Of a DNA stretch of 40,584 nt, positions 17,919-39,558 are shown piece by piece. The DNA comes from an uncultured virus (IMG/VR IMGVR_UViG_3300021256_000060) (lineage: Duplodnaviria > Heunggongvirae > Uroviricota > Caudoviricetes). The position numbers were made by a program, and so were the translations under genes. The stretch is taken from the IMG/VR virus record IMGVR_UViG_3300021256_000060; one strand, given 5' to 3'. The notes under the pieces are model-generated. The model did no database searches. It was not told the DNA's origin and was given only the letters and a program-made list of their open reading frames with translations. Positions within the stretch are counted from its first letter, which is position 1. Each line of letters starts with the position of its first letter.

Positions 17919-17925
17919 GATAGTT

Positions 17926-19228: not shown

Positions 19229-22200
19229 TTATTTTTTATCTTCGTCTTCTATGCCATCCATAAGTATCTCTTGGATCATTCTAGGCTTTATTCCTAGCTC
19301 CTGTTGTGCCTGTCTGGCCAATTCTATAAGCCCCTTATTGATCAGACCATTAGTCATACAGCTAGACACCATACGACCAAAGACGCCTGTAGAGGTAAGG
19401 AATGCACTGACGTACTCATTTGGGCGATACTCAGAGGTGGCTTCTTCCCCTTTAGGGATAAGTGTAGATACTACACCTTTCAGACCAGATAGGTATACTA
19501 TCTTATCTCCTGATGCTAGCTTATCCACAGTCTTCAAATAAAATTCTAGGCGCACGCCCTCTAAATTTTTGAGCTTGCCCTCTTGAGGAAGTTTATAAGA
19601 TGGTTCGAGTTCGTACTCTTTATCTATCTTATAATCTCTCATTACCTTTTTGAGTTTATTAACCTTAGATTCATATTTCTTACAGATATGCTGTAAAGTA
19701 TCACTCAATTTATTCATCTCTACTGTGCGGTATACTTTGATATCTTGTACGATACCACTTACTTTAGCATGAACTTTCTTACGTCCAATATCAGATAATA
19801 TTTCATTACCTTTAGTAAGACTCTTAAGAATAGCTGCTGCATCTTCTTCTTCGGCAGTATCAGAGAAGATAATAAGAGGTTCTCCTTCTTGTACTTCTTG
19901 TCCTACTTCTACCATATGGAAAACGTTAGCGTAAGATGCTAGTGATACATCTTTTTGCACTACTAACTCAAAAGCCAATGCTTCAGAAATAGTATGGTCT
20001 ACTACGCAAGAGTCTTCGAAACCCATTGCTGTATTAAGTATACCTACCTTAGCAAGAGTACCGATATTGTAACTAATATCGTTAGGATCTTTTCCATTAT
20101 TTCCTACTGATGGTGAATAGGATGATTTGTTGTAGGCGACGATATCGTTGTATTTGATCTTACTACCTTTTTTAATGCCAACATTAGGATCAAGCTTAGT
20201 AGTAATATAGAAGCCACCGTCACTATTCTTTTGAATAGTCTCACGAAGATCAATGTAATCACACTCCTTAGTATCATCATCTTGTAATACTATGTATTGA
20301 TCCGTGACTTCTTTAACAGTTCCTCTCTTTCCTTTAAACTTATAAGAGAATTTATTAGAGGTAAGATATGGCAAAGCCTGATCAGCACCAGTAGTAATAA
20401 GATTCGGCATACTCTTTTTAATCATCATTTGATGTTGTACTGTCTGAGTGAAGCCCATTGCTGTACGCATTGGGTCATCTCGATTTACTGCAAGAGGAGT
20501 CATAGCCTCCATGATAGAGAATGTAGATAGATTATCTAAATCCTTGTTCTTAGAAGGAGTAATGAACCCACGCTTGTTACGTACACCAGCATCTATTGTA
20601 GTCTGACGATTGATACCTACAGTGCCAGCGAAACCTGTAGATAGAGATAATACACCAAGCATAGACTCATCATACGTTCTCTTTTCCATACTGAAGGCTC
20701 GTTCAGAGTTCATACCAGATAAACCCTTGAATGTTACCTTAGCTGCAGATTCTGCTTCTAGTAATGGAGATAGAGTAGATAGATCTGAAGAAGTCTGGTC
20801 ATGAGTCAGGATACTATCTATAACTGCTGACTTCTTGCAAGTGAAAGATACACTACCTTTGTTACGTTTAACCCCATTACGATAAGCACCATACTCTTTA
20901 GCCAATACACTATATAGATGGGCAACAATAACTTCATTTACACGAAGTCTGTTACCAGTGATATCTGAATGACGGTTAAACTTAGTGTCTGTTAGCAAGC
21001 TACTAGCATATAGTAGAGCATCAATATACTCATGAGGAATATGCAGTATCTTACAGATCTCTACAGTAATAGGATCCATCATCAGATCTGCAAAGTTATC
21101 CAGACCATCAGCTTTAATCCTCCCGCCATAGTCATCTAATACCCCTAACCACATATCTTTGCTATTGATCTCACCAATACTATATTCAGTGGTATCAAAC
21201 TGCATCATGCCATTCATGAGCATATTATCAGCATCAGATCTAGGATAGTAGATCATATAGCCATCATTGAACTTGATATAGTTTTGACCCTTTGCTGGTC
21301 TCTTTTCAGAAAATTCGTATTTGATACCAACCTTATTAAGCACCTTTTGTAATCCAATAGTATATGCAGCTACTACAATAACAGGAATCGTCATATTTAG
21401 TATGGACGCTTCTGAGAACATTAGCCTATTAGCTACTGCTGAAGCAGCATATAATTCCTTGAACCTATCTGACTTCTCTCCAAGAAGTTCTTTGATATAT
21501 TCATCTGCTGGCATATCAGAAGGGATTGGAATTCTCTTACCATCCTTTACATAAATAGCTAGATATTTCTTAGCAAGATCTTCTTCCTTAAGTTTCTGAT
21601 CTTCTTTAGGAAGACCAGTTCTATCAATAGGAATCTTAGATAGATTATCCATATTGAAAGAAATATAGCTATGATCCTTAAAGGAAATGGTACTAAATAG
21701 AGATGCCAAATCAATAAATGATACTGGTAAGACGTAGTTGTTAGATACCTTACTATTGTCGCCAGGGATTACTTTGAAATCATTACCATCCCACTTAGAT
21801 AATACCTTCATTATCTTATTAACTACTGGAGTGGATTTACCAAACCCAGAAGGAGATTTCCGTCTAATGAAGATTTTATTGTAGTTGGATACTATCTGTA
21901 CAGTATCTCTATCAGTCTTTTCTATAGGAAGAAGCATCAACTGACCAATGAGTACTTTCTCATTACCACGGAGTTTCATAAAGCGACTACCAATCATACG
22001 AGGAATATCTACTTTAACAGTAGATCTCTTACCATTCTCTGCATCCTCATATTGAACAGTCCATGTATCTACATAATCTTCACTAGTAGATGTATTCTCT
22101 ACGTCAATGGAGATAATATTCATAGGATGTGTAGTAGTGGTAAAGTGCTTAAACATAGCCACGATATCAGCTTGCATATCCTCTTTCGTATATATCTCAT

Positions 22201-23689
22201 TAAAGTTAGGGAACTTAACGTGTTTCCAATGATCATCAATAGAATCTATTGGTAATGCAGTTTCAGGAATATCATCATTGGATTCAAACTGCTTAATTAT
22301 ATCAGATACTTTCTTTCCTCTAATTTGCTTTTTAAGTAGCTCTTTTTGCATGGCATCATATCTATCTGCTCTAGCCTTATCCATTTTGATACCATCTTCT
22401 GCTTGAAGAGAAAGCAATAGTTCTTTAAATTTCTCCTCTTCTTCAGCATCATTACTAGTATCTAATTCCTTTTCTGCGTCGTCCATAGTAGTAGCCTTAT
22501 CTGCTATAGCATCAAGCTTATCTACTAACTCATCTCTCTTCAACTCTATATCAGTTTTGGAGTCATCATCTTCACTATCAATATCTTTCTTAACTAAGTT
22601 AGTGATATTGATACCTCCATTTGCTAATTTAAGAGCAAGGTGATTCATTATAACTAGTTTACTGTCCTTATCTATGAATTCGGCTTTAGAGAAATCATTC
22701 CTAGCCATTCTAGTAATAAGGTTAATGAGTTTTGGTACATCGGTATTGTAGTTGAAGTTTTCACCAAGTCTAAAAGTGAAGAAACCACCATTAGAGATAA
22801 TACAGATAAGACTCTTCTTCCAATCAGTGAATCTATCTATTCTCATTTTAAGAGATCTATATAAGAGACTGATAGGATTAGTATTCTCTTCATGATTGAG
22901 TATATTAGTAGACCCTTTAGCCCAATCATCGAAAGGAATAATAATAGTTCTCTTAGTATAATCACCAAATCTGTTATCACTTAGGAATCTAGATACGAAT
23001 GCACCAAAGAGATCTAGCGCTCTATCACCTTTATACATTCCCTTATTTTGGAAGAATAATTCAGTATAGTAACTCAGGTCATAGAATAAGTTTCTATTCT
23101 TATATAGAGATGGATTAACAAACGTATATTTCAGTTGAGGAACTTGTTCTTTAACCTTCTCATAGAGTTTCATTACTTCTTGCTGATTCTTCAATCTACC
23201 AGAGTATAGCATCTTTTTAAAGACTGAGGTTAGGTTATACTGACCATATTTAGTTTTAAGATTCTCTTCTTGTAACACATCTTCATTTAGTACTTCATCT
23301 ACAAAGTCATTGAAGAATACTCTATTATGAGTTTCATTCGTAGAGTAATTCATACTAGCCTTGAAAAGTGATACATCATTATCTCCTAAAGAAAGAGACT
23401 CTTGAAGAGTAGAGAGAGCATCATAGTTCTCTCCATTAATAATTAATTGATTATCTTCATTGAGCTTTTTATTTATAATCATCTCTACATTCTTTTCCAA
23501 GAAGTAAGACTGGAAGTTGTAAGAATTATTACCAGCATTCTTCGAATTCATCACTGAAATAGAAGATTGCATATTAGGGGTCATCAAATAAACCAAACTA
23601 CCATTCATTCTATTAGTGGGGTCTATAGGAAATCTATATTGACCCTTGTACATTGTGAGAGTTTTAGTCTCATCAAGATATACAGCCAT
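19229..23689 (-). CDS. rpoB: Phage multisubunit RNA polymerase beta-like subunit, single chain (probably virion RNAP)
   Basis: RpoB-like motifs: KVTFKGLSGM, NRDDPMRTAMGFTQ (cf. HDDANRALMGANMQ), GFEDSCVV (cf. NFEDAI), VEVGQEVQEGEPL, SGDKIVYLSGLKGVVS (cf. GDKxxxRHGNKGVVS) and GVFGRM (cf. GVPSRM). Highly divergent phage-type homolog with a long N-terminal extension. Confidence 0.92.
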   Translation of the reverse strand: MAVYLDETKTLTMYKGQYRFPIDPTNRMNGSLVYLMTPNMQSSISVMNSKNAGNNSYNFQSYFLEKNVEMIINKKLNEDNQLIINGENYDALSTLQESLSLGDNDVSLFKASMNYSTNETHNRVFFNDFVDEVLNEDVLQEENLKTKYGQYNLTSVFKKMLYSGRLKNQQEVMKLYEKVKEQVPQLKYTFVNPSLYKNRNLFYDLSYYTELFFQNKGMYKGDRALDLFGAFVSRFLSDNRFGDYTKRTIIIPFDDWAKGSTNILNHEENTNPISLLYRSLKMRIDRFTDWKKSLICIISNGGFFTFRLGENFNYNTDVPKLINLITRMARNDFSKAEFIDKDSKLVIMNHLALKLANGGINITNLVKKDIDSEDDDSKTDIELKRDELVDKLDAIADKATTMDDAEKELDTSNDAEEEEKFKELLLSLQAEDGIKMDKARADRYDAMQKELLKKQIRGKKVSDIIKQFESNDDIPETALPIDSIDDHWKHVKFPNFNEIYTKEDMQADIVAMFKHFTTTTHPMNIISIDVENTSTSEDYVDTWTVQYEDAENGKRSTVKVDIPRMIGSRFMKLRGNEKVLIGQLMLLPIEKTDRDTVQIVSNYNKIFIRRKSPSGFGKSTPVVNKIMKVLSKWDGNDFKVIPGDNSKVSNNYVLPVSFIDLASLFSTISFKDHSYISFNMDNLSKIPIDRTGLPKEDQKLKEEDLAKKYLAIYVKDGKRIPIPSDMPADEYIKELLGEKSDRFKELYAASAVANRLMFSEASILNMTIPVIVVAAYTIGLQKVLNKVGIKYEFSEKRPAKGQNYIKFNDGYMIYYPRSDADNMLMNGMMQFDTTEYSIGEINSKDMWLGVLDDYGGRIKADGLDNFADLMMDPITVEICKILHIPHEYIDALLYASSLLTDTKFNRHSDITGNRLRVNEVIVAHLYSVLAKEYGAYRNGVKRNKGSVSFTCKKSAVIDSILTHDQTSSDLSTLSPLLEAESAAKVTFKGLSGMNSERAFSMEKRTYDESMLGVLSLSTGFAGTVGINRQTTIDAGVRNKRGFITPSKNKDLDNLSTFSIMEAMTPLAVNRDDPMRTAMGFTQTVQHQMMIKKSMPNLITTGADQALPYLTSNKFSYKFKGKRGTVKEVTDQYIVLQDDDTKECDYIDLRETIQKNSDGGFYITTKLDPNVGIKKGSKIKYNDIVAYNKSSYSPSVGNNGKDPNDISYNIGTLAKVGILNTAMGFEDSCVVDHTISEALAFELVVQKDVSLASYANVFHMVEVGQEVQEGEPLIIFSDTAEEEDAAAILKSLTKGNEILSDIGRKKVHAKVSGIVQDIKVYRTVEMNKLSDTLQHICKKYESKVNKLKKVMRDYKIDKEYELEPSYKLPQEGKLKNLEGVRLEFYLKTVDKLASGDKIVYLSGLKGVVSTLIPKGEEATSEYRPNEYVSAFLTSTGVFGRMVSSCMTNGLINKGLIELARQAQQELGIKPRMIQEILMDGIEDEDKK

Positions 23690-24663: not shown

Positions 24664-24896
24664 GTTTATTGTATGATTACTTCTTACCTGTATTATACAA
24701 TATCTTATTTATTTATATTCTCTTAAATGGATTAAGCGATAAGAAGTGGATAGACGTTCCTATACGTCTATTCGTTATTTGTCCGTTAGTTTGGTCCATC
24801 TTACACTTTGGGATTATCGTCGTTATAGTCACAGTAATATTATCAATACTAATCATATATTCGAAATTCTTTGGTGAGAATACAGGGGGTAATTAA
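24660..24896 (+). CDS. Small membrane protein
   Basis: 78 aa, two to three hydrophobic segments, RBS AAGGAGG. Confidence 0.75.
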   Translation: MSLLYDYFLPVLYNILFIYILLNGLSDKKWIDVPIRLFVICPLVWSILHFGIIVVIVTVILSILIIYSKFFGENTGGN

Positions 24897-24897
24897 A

Positions 24898-25476
24898 ATG
24901 CCGATGACAGTAGAACAAGTAATAGCTCAAATTCAGCAGTCTAGACGGATGGCTGATGAAGCTGGTAAGAGAACGTATGATACTAAAAGTCAAAAGAATG
25001 AGCTAGCAGTAATGACTGCTATGCTTAATGACTGTTCCTATCAGGTAGGAGTATATAACAACTCAGGATATCAGGGGTTGTATTGTCCTGCTCAGTCATT
25101 CCGCAGACTAGTATCTAACTCAATGGCAGCAATGACTGGTATGAGTAGAATGGAAACTGATGGCTTAGTATCTAAGTATGAATTTGGTCCAAATGATTCT
25201 AAGGAGATGATTAACTTCTCTAAAGAGTTCATTCATACTTATCTCAAGACTGGTAGAAAGCTACCATTAGGTGGACGAGAGGCTAGTAATATTAGCCTAA
25301 TGCTAAAACAGGTTCCTGGAGGTACAGTCTCTTACCCAGTAAAGGTAGGAGAAGATTCTCAAGGTCATGCAATCTGTGAGTCCAAGACTGCCTATGTAGG
25401 AGCATATGAAACAGTCAAGGTATACGGTCCTTGTCCAGCATGGAAAAAAGAAGAGGTTAAAAACGGTAATAAATGA
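24898..25476 (+). CDS. Hypothetical phage protein
   Basis: Start moved to the ATG at 24898 (RBS AGGGGG); globular, with motifs FSKEFIHTYLKTGRKLPLGGRE and KVYGPCPAW. Confidence 0.8.
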   Translation: MPMTVEQVIAQIQQSRRMADEAGKRTYDTKSQKNELAVMTAMLNDCSYQVGVYNNSGYQGLYCPAQSFRRLVSNSMAAMTGMSRMETDGLVSKYEFGPNDSKEMINFSKEFIHTYLKTGRKLPLGGREASNISLMLKQVPGGTVSYPVKVGEDSQGHAICESKTAYVGAYETVKVYGPCPAWKKEEVKNGNK

Positions 25477-26962: not shown

Positions 26963-26980
26963 ATATATTATATTATTGAG
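26963..26980 (+). promoter_or_regulatory. Putative early phage promoter of the Tas-like gene
   Basis: ATATATTATA-ttat-TGAG, followed by the leader hairpin GAGATGG/CCATCTC. Confidence 0.6.
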
Positions 26981-27047
26981 ATGGATTGGTCACCATCTCG
27001 CGACTATATTTGTATAAGCTACATAGTAGCTGAAAGGGGTATTAGAA

Positions 27048-29318
27048 ATGAAATTAATTAACCACGTTGAGCCAATCATGCAGCTCTTGAACTCCCCTCA
27101 TGTAGGCCAGTTCTTAGAGTTCGAAGAAGGAGGTAATATCTCTAAGAGTGATATTGAACACTTTGTACTGGTTCATCTCTCCCATCCTGGAGAACTTGAT
27201 AATCTGCTTGATGTGAAAAAGAAGGCTAAGAAGAAGGCAGTTGTCGAAGAGGAAGAAGATGTATCTGAGGAAGATGTGGTAAACATGTCTGAAGCGGAGA
27301 CTCTTCAGTTGATTCGTCGTATCCGTAAAATCAACTGCCCGTCAATCAATGTGCTTAAAGACAATGGTTGGTTCCTTTGCCCGATCTATGTTGGTGTAAC
27401 TGAGCTTCGTCCTTTGATTTGCAAGAAGCTTCCTGCAAAAAAAGGATACAAACTGGTTATCTTAGATGCATCTATTGGCAATATTGAGGGTCTCTTCACT
27501 AAAGACAATCTTAAGGAATGGGAACTCAATTCCATGCGTAAGCTGGATATGCACTTTGATAATAGTGGTCTTGGCTTCAAGTCCATGAGTGTGTTCATTC
27601 ATAAGAAGGATGATATCTTCACCAAACGTATGCGTAATGCAGTAAATCGTTTAGAAACCACTCAGCGTACTCGTATTAAGTTGGGTAATATACTGGTAGA
27701 TGAGGTTATCAGTATCGTTGGTCAGGAAGCTTATATTAACAATAAGCAGAATCTGGCTAAGAGCAACAAGTCCAAGTCTTCTGTTACTGAATACGATACC
27801 AATGACGTAAAGATCATCAAATATATTGAGAAGGCATATAAGCGTATCAATAAGACAGCTGAGAAGATGGACGTGAAGACTCCTATTCGTCGTCATAAAT
27901 CTTTTGACGCTGTTATAGAACAGATTATAGCCGAAGAGAAACTTGAGCATCAGGATCGTGCAAACGCTTGGCTCAAGTCTATCAATGATGGAGTTGCTAA
28001 TTTAGAGGCTTGGAAGAATGCTTCCAATGGTAATACTGGTATGCCTACCTTAGAGTATGCTATGAGCGTTGTCCGCAATGAGATTGATGAATCTCAGAAA
28101 GGTGATGAAGCGATCGATATCCAGAAGCTTGCTCAGGAATGGATCGATAATGTCAAAGTTGGTATTAATAAGCTCAAGGACTGGAAGGAATCCTATAAGC
28201 AGAATCTCATTGATGAAGGAGAAGATGAGGAAACTATCAGTGTGCCGGATATGCCGACAATGGAAGATGCTCTAGCTGAAACTAAGCAGCTTGGCGTTCA
28301 TGACTACATTGAATCGTTCCTCACCTATGTAAACGTACAGAACTACATGCAGTATGTGAAATCTGAAAAGGATGCTGAACTGGTAGTAAATGAATTGGTT
28401 CATGAATCCTATCTCTGGGAATATATTGAAGGTATTAAGGGCTGTGGTGAGATCACTGCAGCATATATCCTTTCTGATATTGATTTCCGCAGCACTGTTC
28501 ATGCATCTTCAGTAGTTAGATATCTCGGTCTTGATAATATCACTACTGTTCCTGATCGTGAAGGCAAACCTGTTAGTGAAGAGCAGTTGCCGTTGATTAT
28601 TCGTTTCCTGTTCCATAACTATAATCTCATCCGTACTAGAGAAGATAATTCTGATCAGGATGATATCGGTGTTCTGCCTCCGATTAGTGAAGATACATTC
28701 TATCGTTATGCTTCTGAAATGGTCGAGGATTGGAGCGAGTATAAGGCTATCGAAAAGGTTATTAAGACTAAGGGAGTCAATAAGATGGATCCCCATAAGA
28801 TCTTAGAACTGGATACCAACTTTGCTGAACTCGTGCAGAAAGTATGGGAACATTGTGATATTATTGAATATCGCAATCAGCGTGGTGAGATGATTCCTAC
28901 AATTAAGAAGCATGCTCGTTCCAAGAAAGATAGTGTTGTTACTACGTTCTTGGATAAGAACGGTAATATCTCCACTAAGAAGAGCCTTGGCTATAATACC
29001 AAACTCAAGGCTAGAATCATTGAGATCATGTTTGGTTCTATGATGAAGGCTAAGAATGAGTTCTATTATGGTGAACTCTATCTCGGATTCAGAGAACGTA
29101 AAGTTAATGAATATCTTGCTCAAGGTAAAGATCCTGAGATTCATAAGAATCATATCCATATGCAGGCTCGTCGTTATGCAGTACAAATATTCATTGAGAA
29201 TCTGTGGATGTGGGTTCGTCAGAAAAAGGGCTGGCCAACGAATGGTGGTACCTATTACGAGGCTAAACTCAAAGGTACTCATGGTCATGGCTTAGCTATG
29301 AATAGCCCACTTAATTAA
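27048..29318 (+). CDS. Nop-domain / IS110-C-terminal-like RNA-binding protein, TIGR-associated Tas-like (no recognisable nuclease)
   Basis: Coiled-coil motif MRNAVNRLETTQRTRIKLGNIL; Transposase_20/Nop-like motif YIEGIKGCGEITAAYILSDID...SSVVRYLGLD; C-terminal YNTKLKARI...HIHMQARRYAVQIFIENLW...GWP...YYEAKL...HGH. No IS110 DEDD RuvC motif seen at the N-terminus. Confidence 0.8.
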   Translation: MKLINHVEPIMQLLNSPHVGQFLEFEEGGNISKSDIEHFVLVHLSHPGELDNLLDVKKKAKKKAVVEEEEDVSEEDVVNMSEAETLQLIRRIRKINCPSINVLKDNGWFLCPIYVGVTELRPLICKKLPAKKGYKLVILDASIGNIEGLFTKDNLKEWELNSMRKLDMHFDNSGLGFKSMSVFIHKKDDIFTKRMRNAVNRLETTQRTRIKLGNILVDEVISIVGQEAYINNKQNLAKSNKSKSSVTEYDTNDVKIIKYIEKAYKRINKTAEKMDVKTPIRRHKSFDAVIEQIIAEEKLEHQDRANAWLKSINDGVANLEAWKNASNGNTGMPTLEYAMSVVRNEIDESQKGDEAIDIQKLAQEWIDNVKVGINKLKDWKESYKQNLIDEGEDEETISVPDMPTMEDALAETKQLGVHDYIESFLTYVNVQNYMQYVKSEKDAELVVNELVHESYLWEYIEGIKGCGEITAAYILSDIDFRSTVHASSVVRYLGLDNITTVPDREGKPVSEEQLPLIIRFLFHNYNLIRTREDNSDQDDIGVLPPISEDTFYRYASEMVEDWSEYKAIEKVIKTKGVNKMDPHKILELDTNFAELVQKVWEHCDIIEYRNQRGEMIPTIKKHARSKKDSVVTTFLDKNGNISTKKSLGYNTKLKARIIEIMFGSMMKAKNEFYYGELYLGFRERKVNEYLAQGKDPEIHKNHIHMQARRYAVQIFIENLWMWVRQKKGWPTNGGTYYEAKLKGTHGHGLAMNSPLN

Positions 29319-29344
29319 GTTAGCTGTTGTTTAACATAAATTAG

Positions 29345-29382
29345 TGAGGAGAGTCGTAATGACTCTCCTCATATTTTTTTTT
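29345..29382 (+). terminator. Intrinsic terminator of the Tas-like gene
   Basis: TGAGGAGAGTC/GACTCTCCTCA stem followed by a T9 run. Confidence 0.85.
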
Positions 29383-29400: not shown

Positions 29401-29516
29401 ACATACCTAGGTGAAGTAAACGAATAATTTATGGACGTTCTTAATCAAAGGAGCATTTATCTTCAAACACGGACCCCATGAGGCAGGAAACTGCACAGTG
29501 TTTTACCTAGGTATGT
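29401..29516. ncRNA. Candidate structured small RNA between two terminators
   Basis: Closing stem ACATACCTAGGTGAAG/TTTTACCTAGGTATGT (16 bp with two G-U pairs on +) and internal GCAG-GAAA-CTGC tetraloop hairpin. Confidence 0.45.
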
Positions 29517-29545
29517 ACTATATTGTTATATTTGTAAAAAATTAA

Positions 29546-29571
29546 AGGGAGTGCCCATAAGAGCACTCCCC
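29546..29571 (-). terminator. Terminator of the large fibre gene
   Basis: AGGGAGTGC/GCACTCCCT stem followed by TTAATTTTT on the minus strand. Confidence 0.7.
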
Positions 29572-29576
29572 TATTA

Positions 29577-32500
29577 TTATGAGTTTTTACCAGATTTAAT
29601 ACATTCGTATTTCCATCTAGTATCAATATCGACCACATCACCAATCTGATACTTATGACCAGTCTTCATAAATCCAGATCTACGAAGTGCTGAATCATGA
29701 GCTTCTTGATTAATGTTATGAGAATCGATACTTCCTCTTAGACGATTAGTATAATCTACAACAAGGTCTTCAGCAGCACCTATAACAGTATTAGCTATAC
29801 TATGCCCTATTTCGCTAGGAGCTACATTAGCAGTCTTACCTTTGGTTATGCAGTGTAACTTCCAACGATTAGTCGGACTATTCGGGAAGTATACTTCATC
29901 ACCAACGTTATATGTACGGTTAGTTCCATAAGTTCCACCATATACTTTGAAATGAGAAGCATCCGCAGCATTATGATCGGAAATGGATTGAGCAACTTCT
30001 GTAGCAAGAAGTGCCAATTCAGAATCCGAAGGAGTCATAGTCTTGAACTGATTCATACGATTGGTAAGTTTTTGTACATCCAAGTCTGAATCAATAGTTC
30101 TACCAGCAGTAAATGCTGCAGGTCTAGTAGTAGAAGTGGTACCGCTAGTTGTAGCAACTAACACCATACCATTAGGAGCTCCAGGAACATAGACTTCTTG
30201 ACCTTTGGTGAAGGCCATATTAGTCTTGTGCAAGAAACGTCCCATAGAAGAAGTAGAATGGTTATCATTGCTAGATGCATGGATAATCAAATCTTTCTGG
30301 ATATCAATTAATCCACCAAGTCTAGCTTTAGTCTCGAGATTGAGTCTACGACTACCAGTTCTACCACCAGTATTATTGCACTTAGCTTTATATACATGGT
30401 TGTAGATAGCTACGTCTCCATTCTTATAGTTAGTATTCGGTAAAAGAAGTTCATCTCTACCAAACTCATGACCATGAGTACTTTCAGTCTGATCATGATT
30501 TACTAACTTATTCTCAAGGTTAGTGATATATACATGTATATCTCTTTCATTAGCTCTAGTAACGGCTATAGAAGTTCTATTAGCCTCATCAATAGATTCT
30601 GGAGCTATATTAGCGGTAGTACCTGCTTTGATACATTCTAACTTATAGTCTCTATTCATATTAGGTGCTATTACTACATCACCTACTTTGTATGATTGAG
30701 AAGTCATATGCACCATACTATTAGCATTACTATAATAATGAGCTCTAGTATCTACTTCATGATCAGCTATATCTTGAGCAATCTGAGAAGCGTAAGTAGC
30801 AACTATAGCTGCCGTAGGATTAGTCACAGCTCTGATAGAAGCAAGACGATTGCTATTGACAGTTACCCTGTTATCAGTTCCAGAACTTCTTCCACCAAAT
30901 ACAGGTCTAATCTCACTAGTTCTACCACTATTAGTAGCTTGCAGAAGCATAGTAGGTTCTGCTGGGGGCATTACTACATCATTAGTCTGATATACAGTGT
31001 AAGGATGTTGTACTAATCCTCTAGTGTAAGAACTATAATGAGCATAGTCACTCTTCAGATGATCAATATAATTGATTTCAAGATTTATGAGTCGATTCAA
31101 CTCTACCTTAGGATCATCTTTAACCTCAATAACTCTAGTGTCACTAGTAGTACCATCAGTAATACATCTTAACTTGAAGGATCTATTCAATACTACCGTA
31201 TCTCCAACCTTATAATCAGTCGAAGGCATGCGGGAGATGATAGATCCAGAAGCATACTCATGAGCATAGAAGTTATTATTATGCTTAATGATATTATCTT
31301 TAATACGCTTAGTATAGTCAAGAATATTATCAACAGCTGCTCCAACTACGCTCTTAGCCGTCTTGTTGTAGAACGGTGAAGTAGCGGCAGTCTTACCTTT
31401 CTTGATACAACGAAGCTTGAGATCATTAGTAGGACTGTTCGGGAAGTATACTTCGTCTCCAACATTGTACGTGCGGCTAGGAGCATGCATTTCTCCAAGA
31501 GCAGTAAAGTTGGCTCCAGGATTGACATCATGATTTTCGACTGATTGCATAACTTCTGTAGCAAAGTTGGCAACTTGTTGCTCCGTAGGATTGGTATTTC
31601 TGAAAGTATTAATTCTGCTATTGATGGAATCAATTTCTGGATCGTTATCAATAGTCCTACCAGCAGTGAATGCCGAAGGTCTAGTAATAGAGGTCTGTCC
31701 TGTATTAGTAGCAACGAGTACTAGACCGTTTGGTACACCAGGAACGTATACCTCCTGACCTGCATATACTATTTCACCAGTACGATGCATATACTGTGCA
31801 AACGGAATATTGAAATGAACGTTGATTCCACTCTGATGCAAGACTAATTCTCTCTGAGCATCGATTACGCATGCAAGCTTAGCCTTTGCAGCCATATCCA
31901 GTCTAGTAGAAGCAGTAGTACCAGCTTTCGTACATTTGAGACTATAGATGTTATTCGAGATAACAATACTACCAGTATCATAGGGCTTGCTAGCAAGATG
32001 AATCTCATCTCTACCAAACTCATGACCATGAGTACTTTCAGTCTGATCATGATTTACTAACTTCTTTTCAAGGTTAGTAATGTATGCATGTATTTCTCTT
32101 TCATTAGCTCGGATAACGTCCGCAGCAGTTCTATTAGGACCATCGATGGTTTCGGGAGCTTGGGCTGCAGTAGTACCTGCTTTGATACATTCTAACTTAT
32201 AATCTCTATTCATATTAGGTGCTATTACTACATCACCTACTTGATAGGGTTGAGAAGTCATATGTACCATACTATTAGCATTACTATAATAATGAGCTCT
32301 AGTATCTACTTCATGATCAGCTATATCTTGAGCAATCTGAGTAGCATAGTTTGCTACAATAGCTGCTGTCGGATCGATAACCGCTCTAATAGAAGCAAGA
32401 CGACCATTATTGGTAGCAACTCTAGCATCAGTTCCAGAGCTTCTTCCACCAAATGCAGGTCTAACATCATTAGTTCTACCACTATTAGTAGCCATGAGTA

Positions 32501-35500
32501 AGAGACCAGATTCTCCAGGAATCCTAATCATATCATTAGCTTGATAGATAGTGCTAGGATGTTGTACCAATCCTCTAGTGTAAGAACTATAATGAGCATA
32601 GTCACTCTTCAGATGATCAATATAATTGATTTCAAGATTGATAAGTCGATTCAATTCTACTTTAGGATCATCTTTAACCTCAATAACTTTAGTAGTATTG
32701 GTCTTACCAGCAGTGATACATTTTAACTTGAAGGATCTATTCAATATTACCGTATCTCCAACCTTATATTCCGTAGAAGGCATACGAGAAATGATAGATC
32801 CAGAAGCATATTCATGAGCATAGAAGTCATTATTATGAGCCACGATTCTATCTTTAATATGCTTAATGTAATCAAGAACAGTATCTACAGCTGCACCAAT
32901 TACGCCCTTCGCTTGTTTATTATAGAATGGTGAAGTAGCAGCGCTCTTACCTTTCTTGATACAACGAAGCTTAAGATCATTATTCGGGCTATTCGGGAAG
33001 TATACTTCATCACCAACATTATACGTATGGCTAGGAGCATGCATTTCTCCAAGAGCAGTAAAGTTAGCTGCTGGATTAACGTCATGATTCTCGACTGCAC
33101 GCATAACTTCAGTAGCAAACGAAGCAACTTGCTGTTCAGTCGGATTAGTATTCCTAAAGGTATTGATACGACTATTAATAGCATTAACTTCAGGATCACT
33201 ATCAATAGTTCTACCAACAGTGAATGCTGCAGGTCTATTGATAGCAGTCTGTCCTGTATTGGTAGCAACAAGTACGAGACCGTTTGGCACACCAGGAACG
33301 TATACCTCCTGACCAGCGTAGAACCTAGCTCCAGTACGATGCATATAAGCCGCGATAGGAATATTGAAGTGAACATTGATTCCAGTCTGATGCAAGATCA
33401 ATTCTTGCTGAGCATCGATCAAGCAAGCCAGCTTAGCCTTTGCAGCCATATCCAATCTAGTAGAAGCAGTATTACCTGCTCTAGTGCATTTGAGACTATA
33501 GATATTATTAGAGATGACGATAGTATTAGTATCGTAGAACTTGCTAGCAAGATGAATCTCATCTCTACCAAACTCATGACCATGAGAATCAGGATTCGTA
33601 TCATGGGTTTTAAGTTTGACTTCCATAGCATCAATATACTGAGACAGATTATTCGGATCAGCATTTGTTACAGTAGTAGTGCTACGATCAGGATTATCTA
33701 TCTGAATAGGAGGAGTATAAGAAGTAGTACCTGCTTTGATACATTCTAACTTATAGTCTCTATTCATATTAGGTGCTATTACTACATCACCTACTTTGTA
33801 TGATTGAGAAGTCATATGTACCATACTATTAGCATTACTATAATAATGAGCTCTAGTATCTACTTCATGATCAGCTATATCTTGAGCAATTTCAGTTGCT
33901 ATAGAAGCGAGCATGTTGAGACTAGTATTAGTCAAGATCTTGAGCATGCTAATACGAGATTCGGCCTCAGAGATTTTCGCATCAGTACCTTTGCTTCTAC
34001 CGTCAAAGGCAGGTTGATACTGAGAAGTAGTGCCATTAGTAATAGCTTGCAATCTATAGGTAGGACTACCAGGAATTCGTACAACATCGCCAATCTTATA
34101 AGAATGGGAAGTACGATGCATCAAATCTCTAGTAATACTATTTATATGAGTATAATCACTCTTTAAATGTTCTACGAACTTGGTCTCTACACCAATAAGT
34201 CTATTGATAAATACTACCAATGGATCTACCTGACCAAGGATTTCTTGACTAGAAGATTTACCAGCCGTGATACATTTGAGTTTATATGCTCTATTGAGTA
34301 TTACCGTCTTGCCAACCGAATATTCAGTATCCGGCATACGAAGAATAGAATCAGCAAATGCATTTTCATGAGCATTACTATCTTCATCATGCTTATTAAG
34401 ATTCTTCCTAATATTGGATACGTACTCTTCAAGACCTCTAGCACTAGTATTACCAGCCTGTTTAGGCGTAGGATGTGCTGGACTAATAGAAGACGGAGGA
34501 TTCTCAGATGTATAACCAGGACTGATACATTCCAATGCATAATTCAAATCAATATTGGGAGCATACACAATATCACCAATAGAATAGTGACGGTTAGGAG
34601 TATGCTTCAAACAAGTAGAAGCCGTATAGTAATGAGCATCAGGGACTACCTCATGATCATTGAGAAGCTGAGCTACATCTTTAGCATGGGTAGTAAGATC
34701 ACTATCCGTAGGATTATTAAGAGCCTCAATCTGAGTACGCTTATTAATCATACCAGTATAACCTCTATCACCAGCCATTGGTTCTTTCAAGAAAGCAGGT
34801 TTGATAATAGAAGTGATACCATTAGTAGTTGCTTCAAGCATCAAACTACTGCAAAGACCAGGAGCATATACTGCTTCTCCAGCCCCATACGGTTCATTTG
34901 GTTTATGCATTAGGCGATTGGACAATACTTCTCTATGAGAATTATTGTTAATAGTATGATTCATCATATCATTGAGGAGGTTGATCAGAGCCTGCTTATT
35001 AGTCTCTGCATCAATATCCACAATCATGACGTCATTAGCAGTAGTACCTGCCTTGATACACTCAAGTTTATGTGATGGATTCATATCCTTGAGCCATACA
35101 GTATTACCAACACTATAAGCTTTATTTTTTTCTCTAAGGAGATACTCGCCAAATCCATCGAAGTGGGCATCAACGTCTTCTTCATGAGCATCTATATCTC
35201 TTATAGTATCATTAATATAATCATTATACCCAATCTGACTAGCCTCACCAGCATCTTCAGGATCTACAGTATTAGCAATCAATTCAGGAGCTACTTCTGA
35301 GCTAGTACCTGCCTTGATGCATTCTAATGCAAATCCAGATGGTAAGTTAGCTCCGTATACTACCTCTCCCAATTCATAAGCATGATTAGGAGTATGAGTC
35401 ATAGTAGAAGCAGAAGTAAAGTAGTGAGAATCTGTAGATACCAAATGATTCAAATACTTCTGTCTAATATCTGCAGCCCTAGCAGCAATCTCTGCAGGAG

Positions 35501-36863
35501 GAATATTAGTACCCTCAACAGCTATCTTTAGTAGAGTAACCTCATCAATCAACTGATTAATTTCAGATTTGTTAGTAATTCTCTTACCAAAATCTGGTTC
35601 GATAGGAGCACTCATACCATTATTAGTAGCTTGAATTACAAGATTACTTGGAGTACCAGGTACTCTGACTTGACAACCAGTTCTATAATGAGTATTCGTG
35701 TTATGAATCAGGAAGTTGGTAACAGATGCTTTATGCTTATTCTCGAAGAGAGAAATATGATTAGCCCATTTAGTACGCAACTCAGTAAGAGTACCGTATT
35801 GATATTTATTACCAGTATCAACAATGAATTTGTTGAAAGACTCATAAGTCATACCTTCAACAGCAGCAGTACCATCTACTCCACCATCTACAGTATTACT
35901 TCTACCTACTACTTTAGCAGATAACTTATTGTGATCTGTAGGAGTAATGAGGGTAACAGTATCATATCCTGTTTTAGAAACATTAAACAAAGCTTCTAAA
36001 CTATTCAAACCATGATCAGTAGAAGTCATATGCTGAATAAGATACAATTCAACATCTTCAAATTTCTTAGACTGGTCAGAAGAATTCACATCAATAGGAG
36101 TATAAGAGGGAATGGGGAATACATTACCAGAAATACCTACCATTGCTAATGCTTTACTAGGCAAGAATGCTTTATATCCTTTTTCAAACACAAAGTTCAC
36201 ATTCTTACCGATGAATACTGATTTATTGAAGTTATGAGCAGAAGTGGACCAAATATGCTCAAAGATTTCCCGATGTAACTGCTTAATAGCAGATACAACA
36301 ATATCGGATTTAGTATCAATGAATTTAGAAATCCAAGCTTCTAGAATAGATTTTAGAGTCTTTTCATAATCCTCTTCTTCTACTACATCAACACTTCCTA
36401 AGTCATATGAATTATATAAAGTAGCAGAATTGGTAATACGATGATCTGCAGCTTCTAATTGTAAGAATGTTTTAAGATTTGGTACACTAACTTTTCTCCA
36501 TGCACTATAGTAATCATTACTTTTAGAGCGCATAAGAGTATCAATAGTAAATTTATGAGCATTAGGATCAATCTTATGGAATTCTAATTTAGCCTTTAAT
36601 TCCAAAACTGTCCTTAACAGAGAAGATTCACTTACCCTATTAAGAATATCTAATTCATTTAGGATACGTTGTATAGTCTCTGCATGAGATCCTGAGGCTT
36701 CTTCAAGAGCTGTTACTCGATTATCAATTTTATCAGTTTTTTCAAGATTTTCATCAACTTTGGTTTCTAAGTTGATATTAGCGTCAGAAATAGCTTTGAT
36801 AGTATTCTGCAATGAAGTACTTAGTTCGTTCCAGGTAATCAAGTCTTCTCTATTAAAACCCAT
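29577..36863 (-). CDS. Giant repeat-built tail fibre/adhesin-like virion protein
   Basis: 2428 aa. Many copies of YxVGDxV...YKLxCIxAGxT (CBM5/12-like) alternate with helical segments ending in HxxxxxAH, a pattern seen in trimeric phage fibres. RBS GAGGGAGG. Confidence 0.7.
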   Translation of the reverse strand: MGFNREDLITWNELSTSLQNTIKAISDANINLETKVDENLEKTDKIDNRVTALEEASGSHAETIQRILNELDILNRVSESSLLRTVLELKAKLEFHKIDPNAHKFTIDTLMRSKSNDYYSAWRKVSVPNLKTFLQLEAADHRITNSATLYNSYDLGSVDVVEEEDYEKTLKSILEAWISKFIDTKSDIVVSAIKQLHREIFEHIWSTSAHNFNKSVFIGKNVNFVFEKGYKAFLPSKALAMVGISGNVFPIPSYTPIDVNSSDQSKKFEDVELYLIQHMTSTDHGLNSLEALFNVSKTGYDTVTLITPTDHNKLSAKVVGRSNTVDGGVDGTAAVEGMTYESFNKFIVDTGNKYQYGTLTELRTKWANHISLFENKHKASVTNFLIHNTNTHYRTGCQVRVPGTPSNLVIQATNNGMSAPIEPDFGKRITNKSEINQLIDEVTLLKIAVEGTNIPPAEIAARAADIRQKYLNHLVSTDSHYFTSASTMTHTPNHAYELGEVVYGANLPSGFALECIKAGTSSEVAPELIANTVDPEDAGEASQIGYNDYINDTIRDIDAHEEDVDAHFDGFGEYLLREKNKAYSVGNTVWLKDMNPSHKLECIKAGTTANDVMIVDIDAETNKQALINLLNDMMNHTINNNSHREVLSNRLMHKPNEPYGAGEAVYAPGLCSSLMLEATTNGITSIIKPAFLKEPMAGDRGYTGMINKRTQIEALNNPTDSDLTTHAKDVAQLLNDHEVVPDAHYYTASTCLKHTPNRHYSIGDIVYAPNIDLNYALECISPGYTSENPPSSISPAHPTPKQAGNTSARGLEEYVSNIRKNLNKHDEDSNAHENAFADSILRMPDTEYSVGKTVILNRAYKLKCITAGKSSSQEILGQVDPLVVFINRLIGVETKFVEHLKSDYTHINSITRDLMHRTSHSYKIGDVVRIPGSPTYRLQAITNGTTSQYQPAFDGRSKGTDAKISEAESRISMLKILTNTSLNMLASIATEIAQDIADHEVDTRAHYYSNANSMVHMTSQSYKVGDVVIAPNMNRDYKLECIKAGTTSYTPPIQIDNPDRSTTTVTNADPNNLSQYIDAMEVKLKTHDTNPDSHGHEFGRDEIHLASKFYDTNTIVISNNIYSLKCTRAGNTASTRLDMAAKAKLACLIDAQQELILHQTGINVHFNIPIAAYMHRTGARFYAGQEVYVPGVPNGLVLVATNTGQTAINRPAAFTVGRTIDSDPEVNAINSRINTFRNTNPTEQQVASFATEVMRAVENHDVNPAANFTALGEMHAPSHTYNVGDEVYFPNSPNNDLKLRCIKKGKSAATSPFYNKQAKGVIGAAVDTVLDYIKHIKDRIVAHNNDFYAHEYASGSIISRMPSTEYKVGDTVILNRSFKLKCITAGKTNTTKVIEVKDDPKVELNRLINLEINYIDHLKSDYAHYSSYTRGLVQHPSTIYQANDMIRIPGESGLLLMATNSGRTNDVRPAFGGRSSGTDARVATNNGRLASIRAVIDPTAAIVANYATQIAQDIADHEVDTRAHYYSNANSMVHMTSQPYQVGDVVIAPNMNRDYKLECIKAGTTAAQAPETIDGPNRTAADVIRANEREIHAYITNLEKKLVNHDQTESTHGHEFGRDEIHLASKPYDTGSIVISNNIYSLKCTKAGTTASTRLDMAAKAKLACVIDAQRELVLHQSGINVHFNIPFAQYMHRTGEIVYAGQEVYVPGVPNGLVLVATNTGQTSITRPSAFTAGRTIDNDPEIDSINSRINTFRNTNPTEQQVANFATEVMQSVENHDVNPGANFTALGEMHAPSRTYNVGDEVYFPNSPTNDLKLRCIKKGKTAATSPFYNKTAKSVVGAAVDNILDYTKRIKDNIIKHNNNFYAHEYASGSIISRMPSTDYKVGDTVVLNRSFKLRCITDGTTSDTRVIEVKDDPKVELNRLINLEINYIDHLKSDYAHYSSYTRGLVQHPYTVYQTNDVVMPPAEPTMLLQATNSGRTSEIRPVFGGRSSGTDNRVTVNSNRLASIRAVTNPTAAIVATYASQIAQDIADHEVDTRAHYYSNANSMVHMTSQSYKVGDVVIAPNMNRDYKLECIKAGTTANIAPESIDEANRTSIAVTRANERDIHVYITNLENKLVNHDQTESTHGHEFGRDELLLPNTNYKNGDVAIYNHVYKAKCNNTGGRTGSRRLNLETKARLGGLIDIQKDLIIHASSNDNHSTSSMGRFLHKTNMAFTKGQEVYVPGAPNGMVLVATTSGTTSTTRPAAFTAGRTIDSDLDVQKLTNRMNQFKTMTPSDSELALLATEVAQSISDHNAADASHFKVYGGTYGTNRTYNVGDEVYFPNSPTNRWKLHCITKGKTANVAPSEIGHSIANTVIGAAEDLVVDYTNRLRGSIDSHNINQEAHDSALRRSGFMKTGHKYQIGDVVDIDTRWKYECIKSGKNS
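29600..34330 (-). repeat. About three tandem copies of a 1554-bp (518-aa) intragenic unit
   Basis: A near-identical block begins at 30616, 32170 and 33724 (spacing exactly 1554); outer boundaries are approximate. Confidence 0.9.
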
Positions 36864-37723: not shown

Positions 37724-38135
37724 TGCTCTCATTCCTTCCGAGAACAAATGATTGCTGTTCCAAAGGTTGACATAAGTAGATACCATCCTCTTCACTAGCA
37801 TCTTTATCTTGTAGATAATAGATAGTAACGTTCTTATACTCATATATAGTAAGAGTCATATTATAGTCTTCAGGAACTGTAGATCCATTATCCAATTCCT
37901 TTATAAGTTCATGACTATAATGAGGCTCTTCTCTACCTAATACTTTACATCTAAGATCTCTTTTGTTAGAGGTTCCTATTACTAATAATTTTTTAGGGCA
38001 TTCCTCTAAACGTTCCTTAATGAGTTCATTAGTTGTAAATGCAAGATTATGAAGATATACATCTATTTTATCTACTAGCATTGTAGGAAATGTCATAGAT
38101 CCATCATTCCCAATTTCAGGTAGGTTCCCAGTCAT
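37716..38135 (-). CDS. Hypothetical protein in the virion gene cluster
   Basis: 139 aa, overlaps both neighbours, RBS AAAGGGG. Confidence 0.7.
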   Translation of the reverse strand: MTGNLPEIGNDGSMTFPTMLVDKIDVYLHNLAFTTNELIKERLEECPKKLLVIGTSNKRDLRCKVLGREEPHYSHELIKELDNGSTVPEDYNMTLTIYEYKNVTIYYLQDKDASEEDGIYLCQPLEQQSFVLGRNESNG

Positions 38136-39558
38136 CGATAATATCCCCTTTCTGTGCTAGTATTTCCTCTCTATTCTCTGGTATCATCCATACATGTTTG
38201 CTCCAAGTAATTGTACCTCCATTATTTCGTTCAGTTGATACTGTCCATTTAAATAAACATACATCATGGCCTTTTTCAAACTTATTAGCAGAAAAAGTAT
38301 AATAAAGAGGACTATTATCTTTGAACTGTCTTGGATTAGATTGTAAGCGGCCGATAAGTCCATCTACACTATCCTTAGATAGACCGTATCTATCACATTG
38401 TAGAATAGTGCGTACTTGAGTAGATGCTATTATTACATCTCTTTTAGTTTCATCTATTTGACCGCCCATAAGTCCTATTAGTACTGGAGTACGAGATACT
38501 GGATCTAAATCATTATCACCAATATGGCGTATTTGAGTAACTATATAGATATCGCTAGGATCATCTACATAATCATCACCATATAATTTGAGCCTATATC
38601 TTAGCCTAGTCTCATCTGGGTTATTATGATTGATTCTAGTATGGATTAGATTGATCCATAGATCTGGATTGGACAACAAATCAGGATCGAAGTAAACTGG
38701 GTTAAATCCAAATTCTACCGTCTTTCTACCTTTGGGAATAGGATATGGAATATCTATTCTACATGGTAATTCATAAGCTGACGACTGTACTGGGACATCT
38801 GGAATTGGTTCTAATTTCTTATAATAAGGAGCTAGAGAGTTTACCCTAGGAGATAATGATAATACATTCAGATCATAATTAGATCCTATATCTTTAGATA
38901 TCTTATAGATACTATTAGATACTCGTATAATATCATCTCTATCTACTAGTTTACCATTTACAAAGACAGCCATTCTATCTTTGCTATAGTTTCTATCTAT
39001 CTCCTTATTATTGAGATAAATATATCCAGACTCTGGAAGCTCTTGGATAGACTTGGAAGATGGAGAAGATTGGTAGATGACCAATACATCTACCTTATCT
39101 CCAATATTCCCTCTAAATTTCTTAGAGAGAACAATCAATTTACCAGTTGAATCCTCGAACTTATAAAATAGCCCAGGAGATTGACGTTTCCTATTAAAGA
39201 AAACATACATTCTTCTATTCAAATCTATTAGCTTAGAGAAGGGGGTACCAGGAAGTTGAAAAGTCCTGGTACCTTCTTCTGTGACGGTAAAGTGATATTC
39301 TTCTTTTCCAACCCATCTTTTATTCTTTTGATGAATAAATGTGAATTGTAATTCACTTTTTTCATTTATCCCTAGAGAGTTATCTATAATCTCTATTCTA
39401 GATTCATCTATTCTTCGATACACATTATCAGGAATGAATAGATTATCACCTAACCTAGTTTCACTTAGAAAGAATTGTGTATCATGGAATTGAGAATATG
39501 GGAATGGTATATCTACTACAAAATTCCCGGGTGAGGGTCTAATAGTAGGGTATTTCAT
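38116..39558 (-). CDS. Virion structural protein (baseplate-like repeated beta domains)
   Basis: 480 aa; repeats MYVFFNRKRQ and MAVFVNGKLV typical of jumbo-phage structural proteins; RBS GGAGGTGAGGAG. Confidence 0.7.
   Translation of the reverse strand: MKYPTIRPSPGNFVVDIPFPYSQFHDTQFFLSETRLGDNLFIPDNVYRRIDESRIEIIDNSLGINEKSELQFTFIHQKNKRWVGKEEYHFTVTEEGTRTFQLPGTPFSKLIDLNRRMYVFFNRKRQSPGLFYKFEDSTGKLIVLSKKFRGNIGDKVDVLVIYQSSPSSKSIQELPESGYIYLNNKEIDRNYSKDRMAVFVNGKLVDRDDIIRVSNSIYKISKDIGSNYDLNVLSLSPRVNSLAPYYKKLEPIPDVPVQSSAYELPCRIDIPYPIPKGRKTVEFGFNPVYFDPDLLSNPDLWINLIHTRINHNNPDETRLRYRLKLYGDDYVDDPSDIYIVTQIRHIGDNDLDPVSRTPVLIGLMGGQIDETKRDVIIASTQVRTILQCDRYGLSKDSVDGLIGRLQSNPRQFKDNSPLYYTFSANKFEKGHDVCLFKWTVSTERNNGGTITWSKHVWMIPENREEILAQKGDIIDDWEPT

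Follow-up and report, generated by a model that had tools for sequence, protein, structure and literature searches.

TIGR-Tas systems were first described in 2025; their known Tas proteins are about 300-450 amino acids (aa) long and are encoded beside the guide arrays. Here, an enlarged relative is described from an uncultured virus of the Caudoviricetes (IMG/VR record IMGVR_UViG_3300021256_000060), of which one stretch of 40,584 nucleotides (nt), hereafter the window, was analysed. The window encodes a protein of 756 aa, hereafter the giant protein, which is very probably a nuclease-free member of the Tas family in an enlarged, jumbo-phage-specific form, and it also contains, away from this gene, a candidate guide array with units of about 37 nt (Table 1). 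The reading favoured on balance is that the protein works in trans with dispersed, non-canonical arrays of this type, as an RNA-guided DNA binder that would block rather than cut its target.

Among the described systems, the dual-repeat TIGR-TasA of Flavonifractor plautii (FpTasA; Faure et al. 2025, PMC12045711) likewise has a nuclease-free Nop fold, and its Tyr/His loop has a putative counterpart here. Its motifs follow the order found here (W..Y..IKGCG, YxGLD, KKSLxYN..LK, A.RYAV..F...W, Y.E/V.AKLGH), and FpTasA-type guide units, like the candidate units here, combine two fixed with two variable parts over a length of about 36 nt. In contrast, FpTasA has only 295 aa, whereas the giant protein carries an added N-terminal domain, an expanded tip and an insert of about 105 aa. 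TIGR-TasA arrays flank the gene and have two UG...CCA-type repeats with variable parts of 9 + 9 nt, whereas the candidate arrays described here are dispersed, are separated from the gene by at least 10 kb, and have dissimilar repeats (YCWAT and AATGNA) with variable parts of about 10 + 12 nt. A second group, comprising Tas proteins of 460-560 aa, is also encoded by large phages, has the same N-terminal domain and is homologous throughout, but is without the two large inserts; in one member, the gene is followed immediately by a canonical dual-repeat array with 36-nt units. The stem-loop TIGR systems (PateTasR, CsTasR, and PlTasA) likewise combine tip and C-terminal-domain insertions with non-standard guides, and their nuclease-dead or nuclease-free proteins act as repressors (bioRxiv 10.64898/2026.09.09.750476, 10.64898/2026.08.11.744272). 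The stem-loop clades have hairpin-flanked guides and no Tyr/His loop, whereas the giant protein has a putative counterpart of this loop and its candidate array RNA folds more weakly than shuffled sequences do (z +1.07). Finally, the IS110 recombinases with bridge RNA (IS621 and ISCro4) have the C-terminal RNA-binding fold and the weak Transposase_20 signal in common with the giant protein, which differs from them in being without a DEDD domain, single-copy and structurally nearer to Tas.

Structural relationship to Tas proteins

The preliminary description, made from the DNA sequence alone, had recognized in the 756-aa open reading frame (ORF) the motif order of IS110 C-terminal, Nop and Tas proteins, and this order is borne out by the translation and by an alignment of 26 close family members (A1), in which 52 columns are invariant. 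The motif GIKGCGEITAAYILSDID at residues 462-479, and HIHMQARRY, LW and YYEAKL at about residues 700-741, all fall in conserved columns. Pfam Transposase_20 (PF02371) matched residues 459-498 with an E value of 0.0075 and 17.1 bits, which is below its cut-off of 21.3; it scored 20.2 bits in G001, a 266,420-bp viral record (phage) to part of which the window is 96-98% identical, and it was matched at E<=1 by 15 of the 26 family members. Among PHROGs, phrog_4285, labelled 'transposase', was matched at 1.9e-10. When the family profile was compared with the PDB, the sole match was TasH (SpTasH; E 0.0047), in two stretches that comprise the helix-hairpin-helix (HhH) GIxGxG...YxGxD and the C-terminal ARR...F...W helices.

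The AlphaFold2 model, for which A1 served as the input alignment, had a mean predicted local distance difference test (pLDDT) score of 74.4. In Foldseek, the ten top-ranking PDB matches of this model were without exception TasH or TasR (probability 1.00, E 3.8e-3 to 6.1e-2). With VIA-align, Z scores were 15.5 for TasH (9w04_B; 221 aligned residues, root-mean-square deviation 3.8, 20% identity) and 15.3 for TasR (9mty_A; 194 aligned residues, deviation 2.6), as compared to 9.7-10.3 for IS621 and ISCro4 and 6.6 or less for unrelated coiled coils. Chains of small-subunit (SSU) processome entries, presumably Nop56/58, reached 5.5-6.0 and were aligned over model residues 187-729. Therefore, the core is a Tas-type Nop domain, with IS110 and Nop5 as more distant relatives than Tas, and this fold assignment is firm. 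The TasH profile match, Foldseek and VIA-align thus agree with the earlier proposal of a TasA-like, nuclease-free Nop-fold protein, for which a structural comparison of this kind had been suggested. No Pfam match to the nuclease families RuvC, HNH or DEDD was found in the protein or its family, and PF01548 was also unmatched.

The weak Transposase_20 match and the 'transposase' label of phrog_4285 could also be read as traces of an IS110-family transposase, now decayed or domesticated, that no longer has a DEDD domain or any function dependent on a guide, as could a weak lead in the Atlas from residues 1-190 to an IS110 DEDD cluster (0.79, within the range of shuffled proteins). Such an origin is highly improbable, given that the fold is nearer to Tas (Z 15 versus 10), that PF01548 is unmatched, and that the gene has a single copy per genome. 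Moreover, the gene is intact at 31-73% identity across the phage lineage, with partly conserved neighbours, and the 52 invariant columns include the RNA-side motifs. The ordinary IS110 transposase that the preliminary description had named as its counter-case is likewise not what was found, in view of the missing DEDD domain, the single copy and the conserved neighbours, although element ends were not searched for.

The relationship to Tas extends to shorter phage proteins. Against an alignment of twelve relatives of 462-563 aa from the 460-560-aa group (A3), hhalign gave a probability of 100% and an E value of 6.9e-67 over 451 columns, from the N-terminal domain through the C-terminus. One member of A3, encoded by the 202-kb phage G003 (locus L075, 4599-6032), adjoins a canonical dual-repeat TIGR array of about 1.1 kb directly downstream (L075, 6033-7162), in which AGTAAACC and AGTTAACC alternate with spacers of about 10 nt. 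Therefore, the whole clade, N-terminal domain included, is tied to TIGR systems.

Domain organization of the giant protein

Both the N-terminal extension and the two inserts of the preliminary description were recovered. The extension is an alpha/beta domain of its own, of about 185 residues, which folds independently when modelled alone (pLDDT 81.9, predicted template modelling score 0.75). A known fold was not found for it: the best Z score of VIA-align among 48,161 PDB chains, Nop5 N-terminal domains included, was only 2.5, and no fold could be assigned from Foldseek, with best E values of 0.33 in the PDB and 0.068 in BFVD. In a 35-sequence alignment, no acidic residue of the domain is conserved at 90% or more, and thus an active RuvC is excluded; together with the missing Pfam matches, this upholds the earlier statement that no nuclease is present. 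The predicted order of strands and helices (b-b-b-a-b-a-b) is compatible with an RNase-H-like fold, for which the Atlas lead mentioned above was the sole positive hint; nothing above 0.85 was found in the Atlas for residues 1-190. The domain may or may not have such a fold in inactive form. Since the hhalign comparison with A3 places the same domain in the 460-560-aa relatives, one of which has an adjoining canonical array, the N-terminal domain is not special to the giant form.

What does distinguish the giant form from A3 is the two inserts. The first is a helical block of about 130 aa at the coiled-coil tip (about residues 285-415), which is missing from the shorter relatives. At this tip, the window protein has about 43 residues more than its 68-73%-identical relatives in A1; these extra residues (window 27954-28250, residues ~303-400) resemble an internal duplication, WLKSINDGVANLEAWKNA / WIDNVKVGINKLKDWKES. 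The second insert, of about 105 aa, follows YLGLD (about residues 514-619) and is modelled as helices and a beta-hairpin (H514-533, H562-602, E605-619); for residues 497-650, no Atlas family scored above 0.85. Insertions at the coiled-coil tip and after the HhH are reported to accommodate changed guide RNAs in published Tas clades (bioRxiv 10.64898/2026.09.09.750476). Since the two inserts here occupy matching positions, a guide-fitting role for them is at least as likely as the different effector function, such as silencing or exclusion, that had been proposed earlier and for which the results speak neither in favour nor against.

The C-terminal loop may be relevant to guide processing. SpTasH cuts its own precursor (pre-tigRNA) with Y289 and H296 in this loop (PMC13421893), and the Tyr/His pair is kept in dual-repeat clades and missing in stem-loop clades (bioRxiv 10.64898/2026.09.09.750476). 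The HMMER alignment to TasH stops at TasH residue 285 and was continued by eye from the SpTasH sequence. In this continuation, RPLYVQEKLGH of SpTasH parallels GGTYYEAKLKGTH, with the motif TYYEAKL..H here versus LYVQEKLGH, and Y736, K740 and H745 are invariant in the 26 sequences of A1. If the correspondence holds, the loop would suggest that the protein has an array transcript as its cleavage substrate.

Distribution among jumbo phages

The giant protein was found encoded in only two records of a viral collection of 2.9 million contigs. One is G001, which holds a 100% identical copy, and the other is G002, a complete phage genome of 289,956 bp whose giant protein is 31% identical to that of the window. 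In both, the gene is single-copy and is the sole Tas-like match. A large protein collection contained 31 relatives at E<=1e-3, 26 of them close (37-100% identity, 505-756 aa), and the contigs that carry several of these 26 are 140-318 kb long. In contrast to these positive searches, tblastn against 50,697 deposited phage records gave no relatives, and none of the 42 stretches found in a scan of prokaryote genome contigs was a relative. A profile search of 1.84 billion representatives returned 1,120 proteins at E<=1e-3; its distant matches have 230-480 aa and are matched only in the coiled-coil/HhH and C-terminal parts. When 20 profile matches of 232-559 aa were scanned with Pfam, Transposase_20 was found in 13 at E<=0.01.

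The genomic setting is that of a jumbo phage, with genes in the window for a 1,486-aa multisubunit-type RNA polymerase beta-like protein, an endolysin and a thymidylate-synthase-like protein. Some neighbours are common to the window and the relatives' loci. For instance, the 201-aa ORF at 24871-25476 has 62% identity to an ORF upstream in one relative's locus (L006), and the 480-aa ORF at 38116-39558 has 38% identity to an ORF in another (L008). Therefore, the gene is an old resident of the phage lineage and not a mobile insert. A literature search found no paper that connects TIGR-Tas with jumbo or huge phages. Within the first 400 characters of each cell, 9,182 rows searched in Table S1 of PMC12045711 contain no contig identifiers and no peptide words of the family, which may still be listed there.

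Candidate arrays of 37-nt units

The candidate arrays are an addition to the preliminary description, which named no guide RNA. A scan of G001 for short words that recur at a spacing of 25-80 nt flagged a non-coding stretch with a period of about 38 nt. Each unit opens with (C/T)CAAT, which a variable segment of 9-11 nt separates from AATGNA; a second variable segment of about 12 nt and a triplet rich in A/T complete it. The two-word pattern gave 15 matches in G001, as opposed to none for the reversed control, and these fall into four arrays, one being that of the window and three lying elsewhere. In the window itself, CCAAT-N9-12-AATG occurs 10 times, compared to 1.69 +/- 1.31 in shuffled sequences, none of which reached 10 (0/100), and a blind scan for periodic words placed 17 of 18 chains in the array region and indicated no other region. 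Regularity extends to positions outside the pattern: among the 38 strictly matched units of the four arrays, 37 have A at position +6 of AATGNA, which the pattern does not require, and 31 have A three bases before the edge word.

The window array fills an 873-nt ORF-free gap between the ORF at 15549-16403 and an HNH-like ORF at 17277-17918. Differences between the window and G001 within the array are single-base insertions or deletions, and it is thus non-coding. Contigs of related strains, assembled from three public runs, vary across the array by unit-sized lengths, with 35 nt skipped, 50 nt replaced by 14 (net 36), and 40 and 81 nt skipped. Among the best-supported differences listed, all 12 in-array substitutions of related strains spare the invariant letters (634 further differences exist). 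Predicted folding of the array RNA is weaker than that of its shuffled versions (z +1.07 for the plus strand and +2.52 for the minus strand), and in this respect the array resembles dual-repeat and not stem-loop arrays. A TIGRFinder-style stem-loop scan of the window (box C CNA, 8-10 nt, box D YG, stem >=5) gave 19 matches versus 10-29 in 20 shuffles, with no clusters. Tandem Repeats Finder reported no array in the window because the units are too dissimilar, and the window had no Rfam matches at gathering thresholds and no tRNA genes.

In one of the other G001 arrays (array C, 85710-86183, minus strand), AATGAA and AATGTA units alternate, and alternate units begin with a near-identical spacer, TAAATGTAT. 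This alternation suggests either growth by duplication of two-unit blocks (about 74 nt) or a two-unit functional guide. The HNH-endonuclease-like ORF (plus strand; phrog_1271, 2.5e-09) begins at the 3' end of the window array, and the last unit enters its ribosome-binding site.

Possible relationship between the arrays and the protein

The second genome with a giant gene also has such an array. In G002, the minus strand carries a single long array (151.1-153.1 kb) that contains 30 strict units (about 45 rows by eye) of the same design, with the AATGWA word retained and TCTAT as the edge word instead. When the 2.9 million contigs of the viral collection were scanned with two patterns, 10 and 16 loci were obtained, and arrays with variable segments occurred only in G001 and G002. 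Other loci from these scans were coding or perfect tandem repeats (L050/L057, L058, L062, L064, and L071) or isolated two-unit matches (L049/L053, L056, L061/L070, and L063), and were rejected as arrays. G003, with its canonical Tas and array, had no match to the new CCAAT/AATGNA pattern. All five arrays are oriented like the gene upstream, which fits a strand-specific transcript, and the units, with 36-38 nt, are about as long as the tigRNA of 36 nt (PMC12045711). Judged from these sequence features, a link between the arrays and the protein seems a somewhat better than even prospect.

Several observations weigh against this link and what is built on it. No periodic array was found closer than 5 kb to the gene in the window, nor in the available flanks of seven relatives' loci (L005-L011), and the distance between array and gene is 10 kb in the window and 22 kb in G002, whereas published TIGR arrays flank their tas gene. 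The logo of the 38 units has one C-like (YCAAT) and one D-like (AATGNA) word and no second pair, whereas the published dual repeats both begin with UG and end with CCA, covarying for a symmetric dimer (PMC12045711). G001 and G002 are kin, and hence their co-occurrence of array and gene amounts to two non-independent cases. Among 20 sequencing runs listed, none had RNA data for the phage. Targets for spacer pairs under the tandem rule were not found in G001 at <=2 mismatches, except for one 10-mer, and spacer 9- and 10-mers were not enriched in G001 or G002 relative to shuffled spacers. In addition, the Tyr/His correspondence depends on an alignment made by eye.

Some of these points would be accounted for if the arrays were unrelated to the Tas-fold protein, being instead another non-coding RNA, protein-binding sites or a recombination-prone repeat, with the protein using an unrecognised guide or none. 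At least 10 kb separate the arrays from the gene, the genes that adjoin the five arrays are mutually unrelated, and the array words are without the symmetry of known TIGR repeats; moreover, one published Tas branch is also described as having no detectable arrays (bioRxiv 10.64898/2026.09.09.750476). However, the unit geometry, with two fixed words and two variable segments in 36-38 nt, is that of TIGR arrays, and the arrays are present in both giant-gene genomes and, by the two pattern scans, in no other contig of the viral collection. The strand orientation is consistent in five of five, and the conserved Tyr/His loop would imply an RNA substrate that needs cutting. Independence of arrays and protein is considered the less likely reading, although it is the chief rival of the favoured one. 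Were it true, the findings would come down to a TasA of unusual size that has no array and, separately, to 37-nt arrays of an unexplained class.

A comparison with the G003 repeats (AGT..ACC) suggests how the two designs could be related. The '..AWCC' end is retained in the edge word and the 'A-N-U-G' start in the loop word, and therefore only the segment of about 10 nt would be boxed on both sides. Tentatively, the arrays could represent an undescribed guide architecture, in which scattered arrays with about 50 or more units per phage lie remote from the effector gene and provide a 'half-TIGR', or asymmetric, guide that is read with the help of the two inserts. It is this array architecture that would be the new part.

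For transcription, processing, binding, target and outcome, we infer the following scheme under the favoured reading of a protein that acts in trans. The guides would lie in several dispersed arrays with units of about 37 nt, including that of the window, and not beside the gene, and each array would be co-transcribed with its upstream gene. A unit would comprise a box-C-like YC-WAT and a box-D-like AAUG-N-A around a variable segment of about 10 nt, followed by a second variable segment of about 12 nt. The Nop core would bind the two words, and the conserved Tyr/His loop would process the precursor to RNAs of one unit each. Accommodation of the altered, asymmetric guide is the probable role of the large inserts at the tip and after the HhH, and the N-terminal domain may hold DNA or a partner. 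The resulting ribonucleoprotein would bind DNA complementary to the variable segment or segments and, without a nuclease, would block transcription or replication of the target, be it a competitor element or the host, rather than cut it.

A different use of the same units would follow if the protein were an RNA-guided scaffold on RNA, like archaeal Nop5 in box C/D particles, with the N-terminal domain recruiting a modifying enzyme and the units guiding it to host or phage RNAs. The Nop fold is common to both, the SSU-processome chains align with the model, and the N-terminal domain sits where Nop5 has its fibrillarin-binding domain (PMC12045711). Such a role is nevertheless quite improbable: DNA-targeting Tas proteins are far closer in structure (Z 15 versus 6), the N-terminal domain resembles neither the N-terminal domains of Nop5 nor any other known fold, and no methyltransferase is among the listed neighbours of the gene, for which no dedicated search was made. 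The consensus boxes of the k-turn type are RUGAUGA for C and CUGA for D, and such boxes are missing from the unit logo.

If the proposed action in trans is correct, the Tas family reaches about twice its known size in a form restricted to jumbo phages of animal-gut metagenomes, and one Tas effector can serve numerous dispersed arrays in trans. Such arrays would escape standard array finders, as their fixed words have only 4-6 nt and differ from the published box sets, and as the arrays themselves are remote from the gene. The locus would also be a natural case of guide change coupled with large protein insertions, which would help in understanding RNA reading by the Nop fold and in its engineering, and it gives a concrete test of what nuclease-free TasA proteins do in phages.

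Flanking elements and other features of the window

Coordinates of the gene, its flanking elements and the candidate array are collected in Table 1.

Table 1. Features of the giant gene, its flanks and the candidate array in the window
Feature	Position	Strand	Basis
Candidate guide array with 23 units in a row, each of 34-45 nt (mostly 36-38)	16424-17262	+	Unit parse
Promoter-like TATATTATAT (26964), then 7-bp hairpin GAGATGG/CCATCTC (26978-26999)	26964-26999	+	Sequence; inverted repeat I7
Gene for nuclease-free Tas-like (Nop-fold) protein, 756 aa (very probable assignment)	27048-29318	+	ORF; 100% identical copy in G001; 26 close homologues
N-terminal alpha/beta domain, residues 1-185, with disordered acidic/basic loop 55-80	27048-27602	+	Domain model
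Coiled-coil arms (about residues 190-240 and 424-453) around helical tip expansion (about 241-420)	27615-28406	+	Secondary structure of model; hhalign gap versus A3
HhH part of Nop domain: W457, GIKGCGEITAAY (462-473), to YLGLD (492-496)	28413-28535	+	Transposase_20 match; TasH 136-180; invariant columns
Family-specific insert after YLGLD, ~105 aa, about residues 514-619	28587-28904	+	hhalign gap versus A3
C-terminal Nop core: beta-hairpin KKHARSKKD..KKSLGYN (620-650) and helices 651-727 with ARRYAVQIFIENLW	28905-29240	+	Invariant columns; TasH 201-285; FpTasA motif order
C-terminal loop NGGTYYEAKLKGTHGHG with Y736 and H745 (invariant) and H747	29241-29315	+	A1; by-eye alignment to SpTasH Y289/H296
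Intrinsic terminator of the gene	29344-29382	+	13-pair stem, then T-run

The gene was earlier described as having its own early-type promoter and its own terminator. The terminator is present (29344-29372), whereas the promoter is confirmed in part only, by a promoter-like sequence. The promoter-like TATATTATAT is a variant of an over-represented 11-mer, TATATACTATA, which has 29 copies in G001 and 41 in G002, with copies in the window at 17925 (+), 15486 (-), and 13177 (-). In all four relatives' loci with upstream DNA (L003, L005, L006, and L010), TATATACTATA precedes the homologous gene and is followed by ATGAG and a short hairpin. It probably represents a promoter consensus peculiar to this lineage, from which transcripts would start with a 5' hairpin. 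The loop of the hairpin in the window, ATTGGTCA, includes the complement of the array edge word CCAAT, which may be due to chance.

The 1,486-aa protein of the window (19229-23689, minus strand) matches phage multisubunit RNA polymerase beta families (phrog_14872, 4e-122), and therefore the phage probably has its own transcription polymerase. Downstream of the giant gene, a 2,428-aa ORF (29577-36863, minus strand) has long internal repeats, with recurring blocks such as HEVDTRAHYYSNANSMVHMTSQ, and only short and weak PHROG matches. The G001 record ends inside this ORF, and so the assembly probably broke on the repeats.

Between the giant gene and this ORF, a gap of 170 nt separates convergent terminators at 29344-29372 and 29545-29572. 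It holds a 16-bp stem, ACATACCTAGGTGAAG / TTTTACCTAGGTATGT (window 29401-29516), which encloses about 86 nt and has a minimum free energy of -37.8 kcal/mol (z -3.1). As a guide, this stem-loop was set aside, being single-copy and missing downstream of six relatives' loci. The gap that contains it is identical in G001 at 170 of 170 positions, again in a single copy, and the stem-loop may be a small independent RNA gene.

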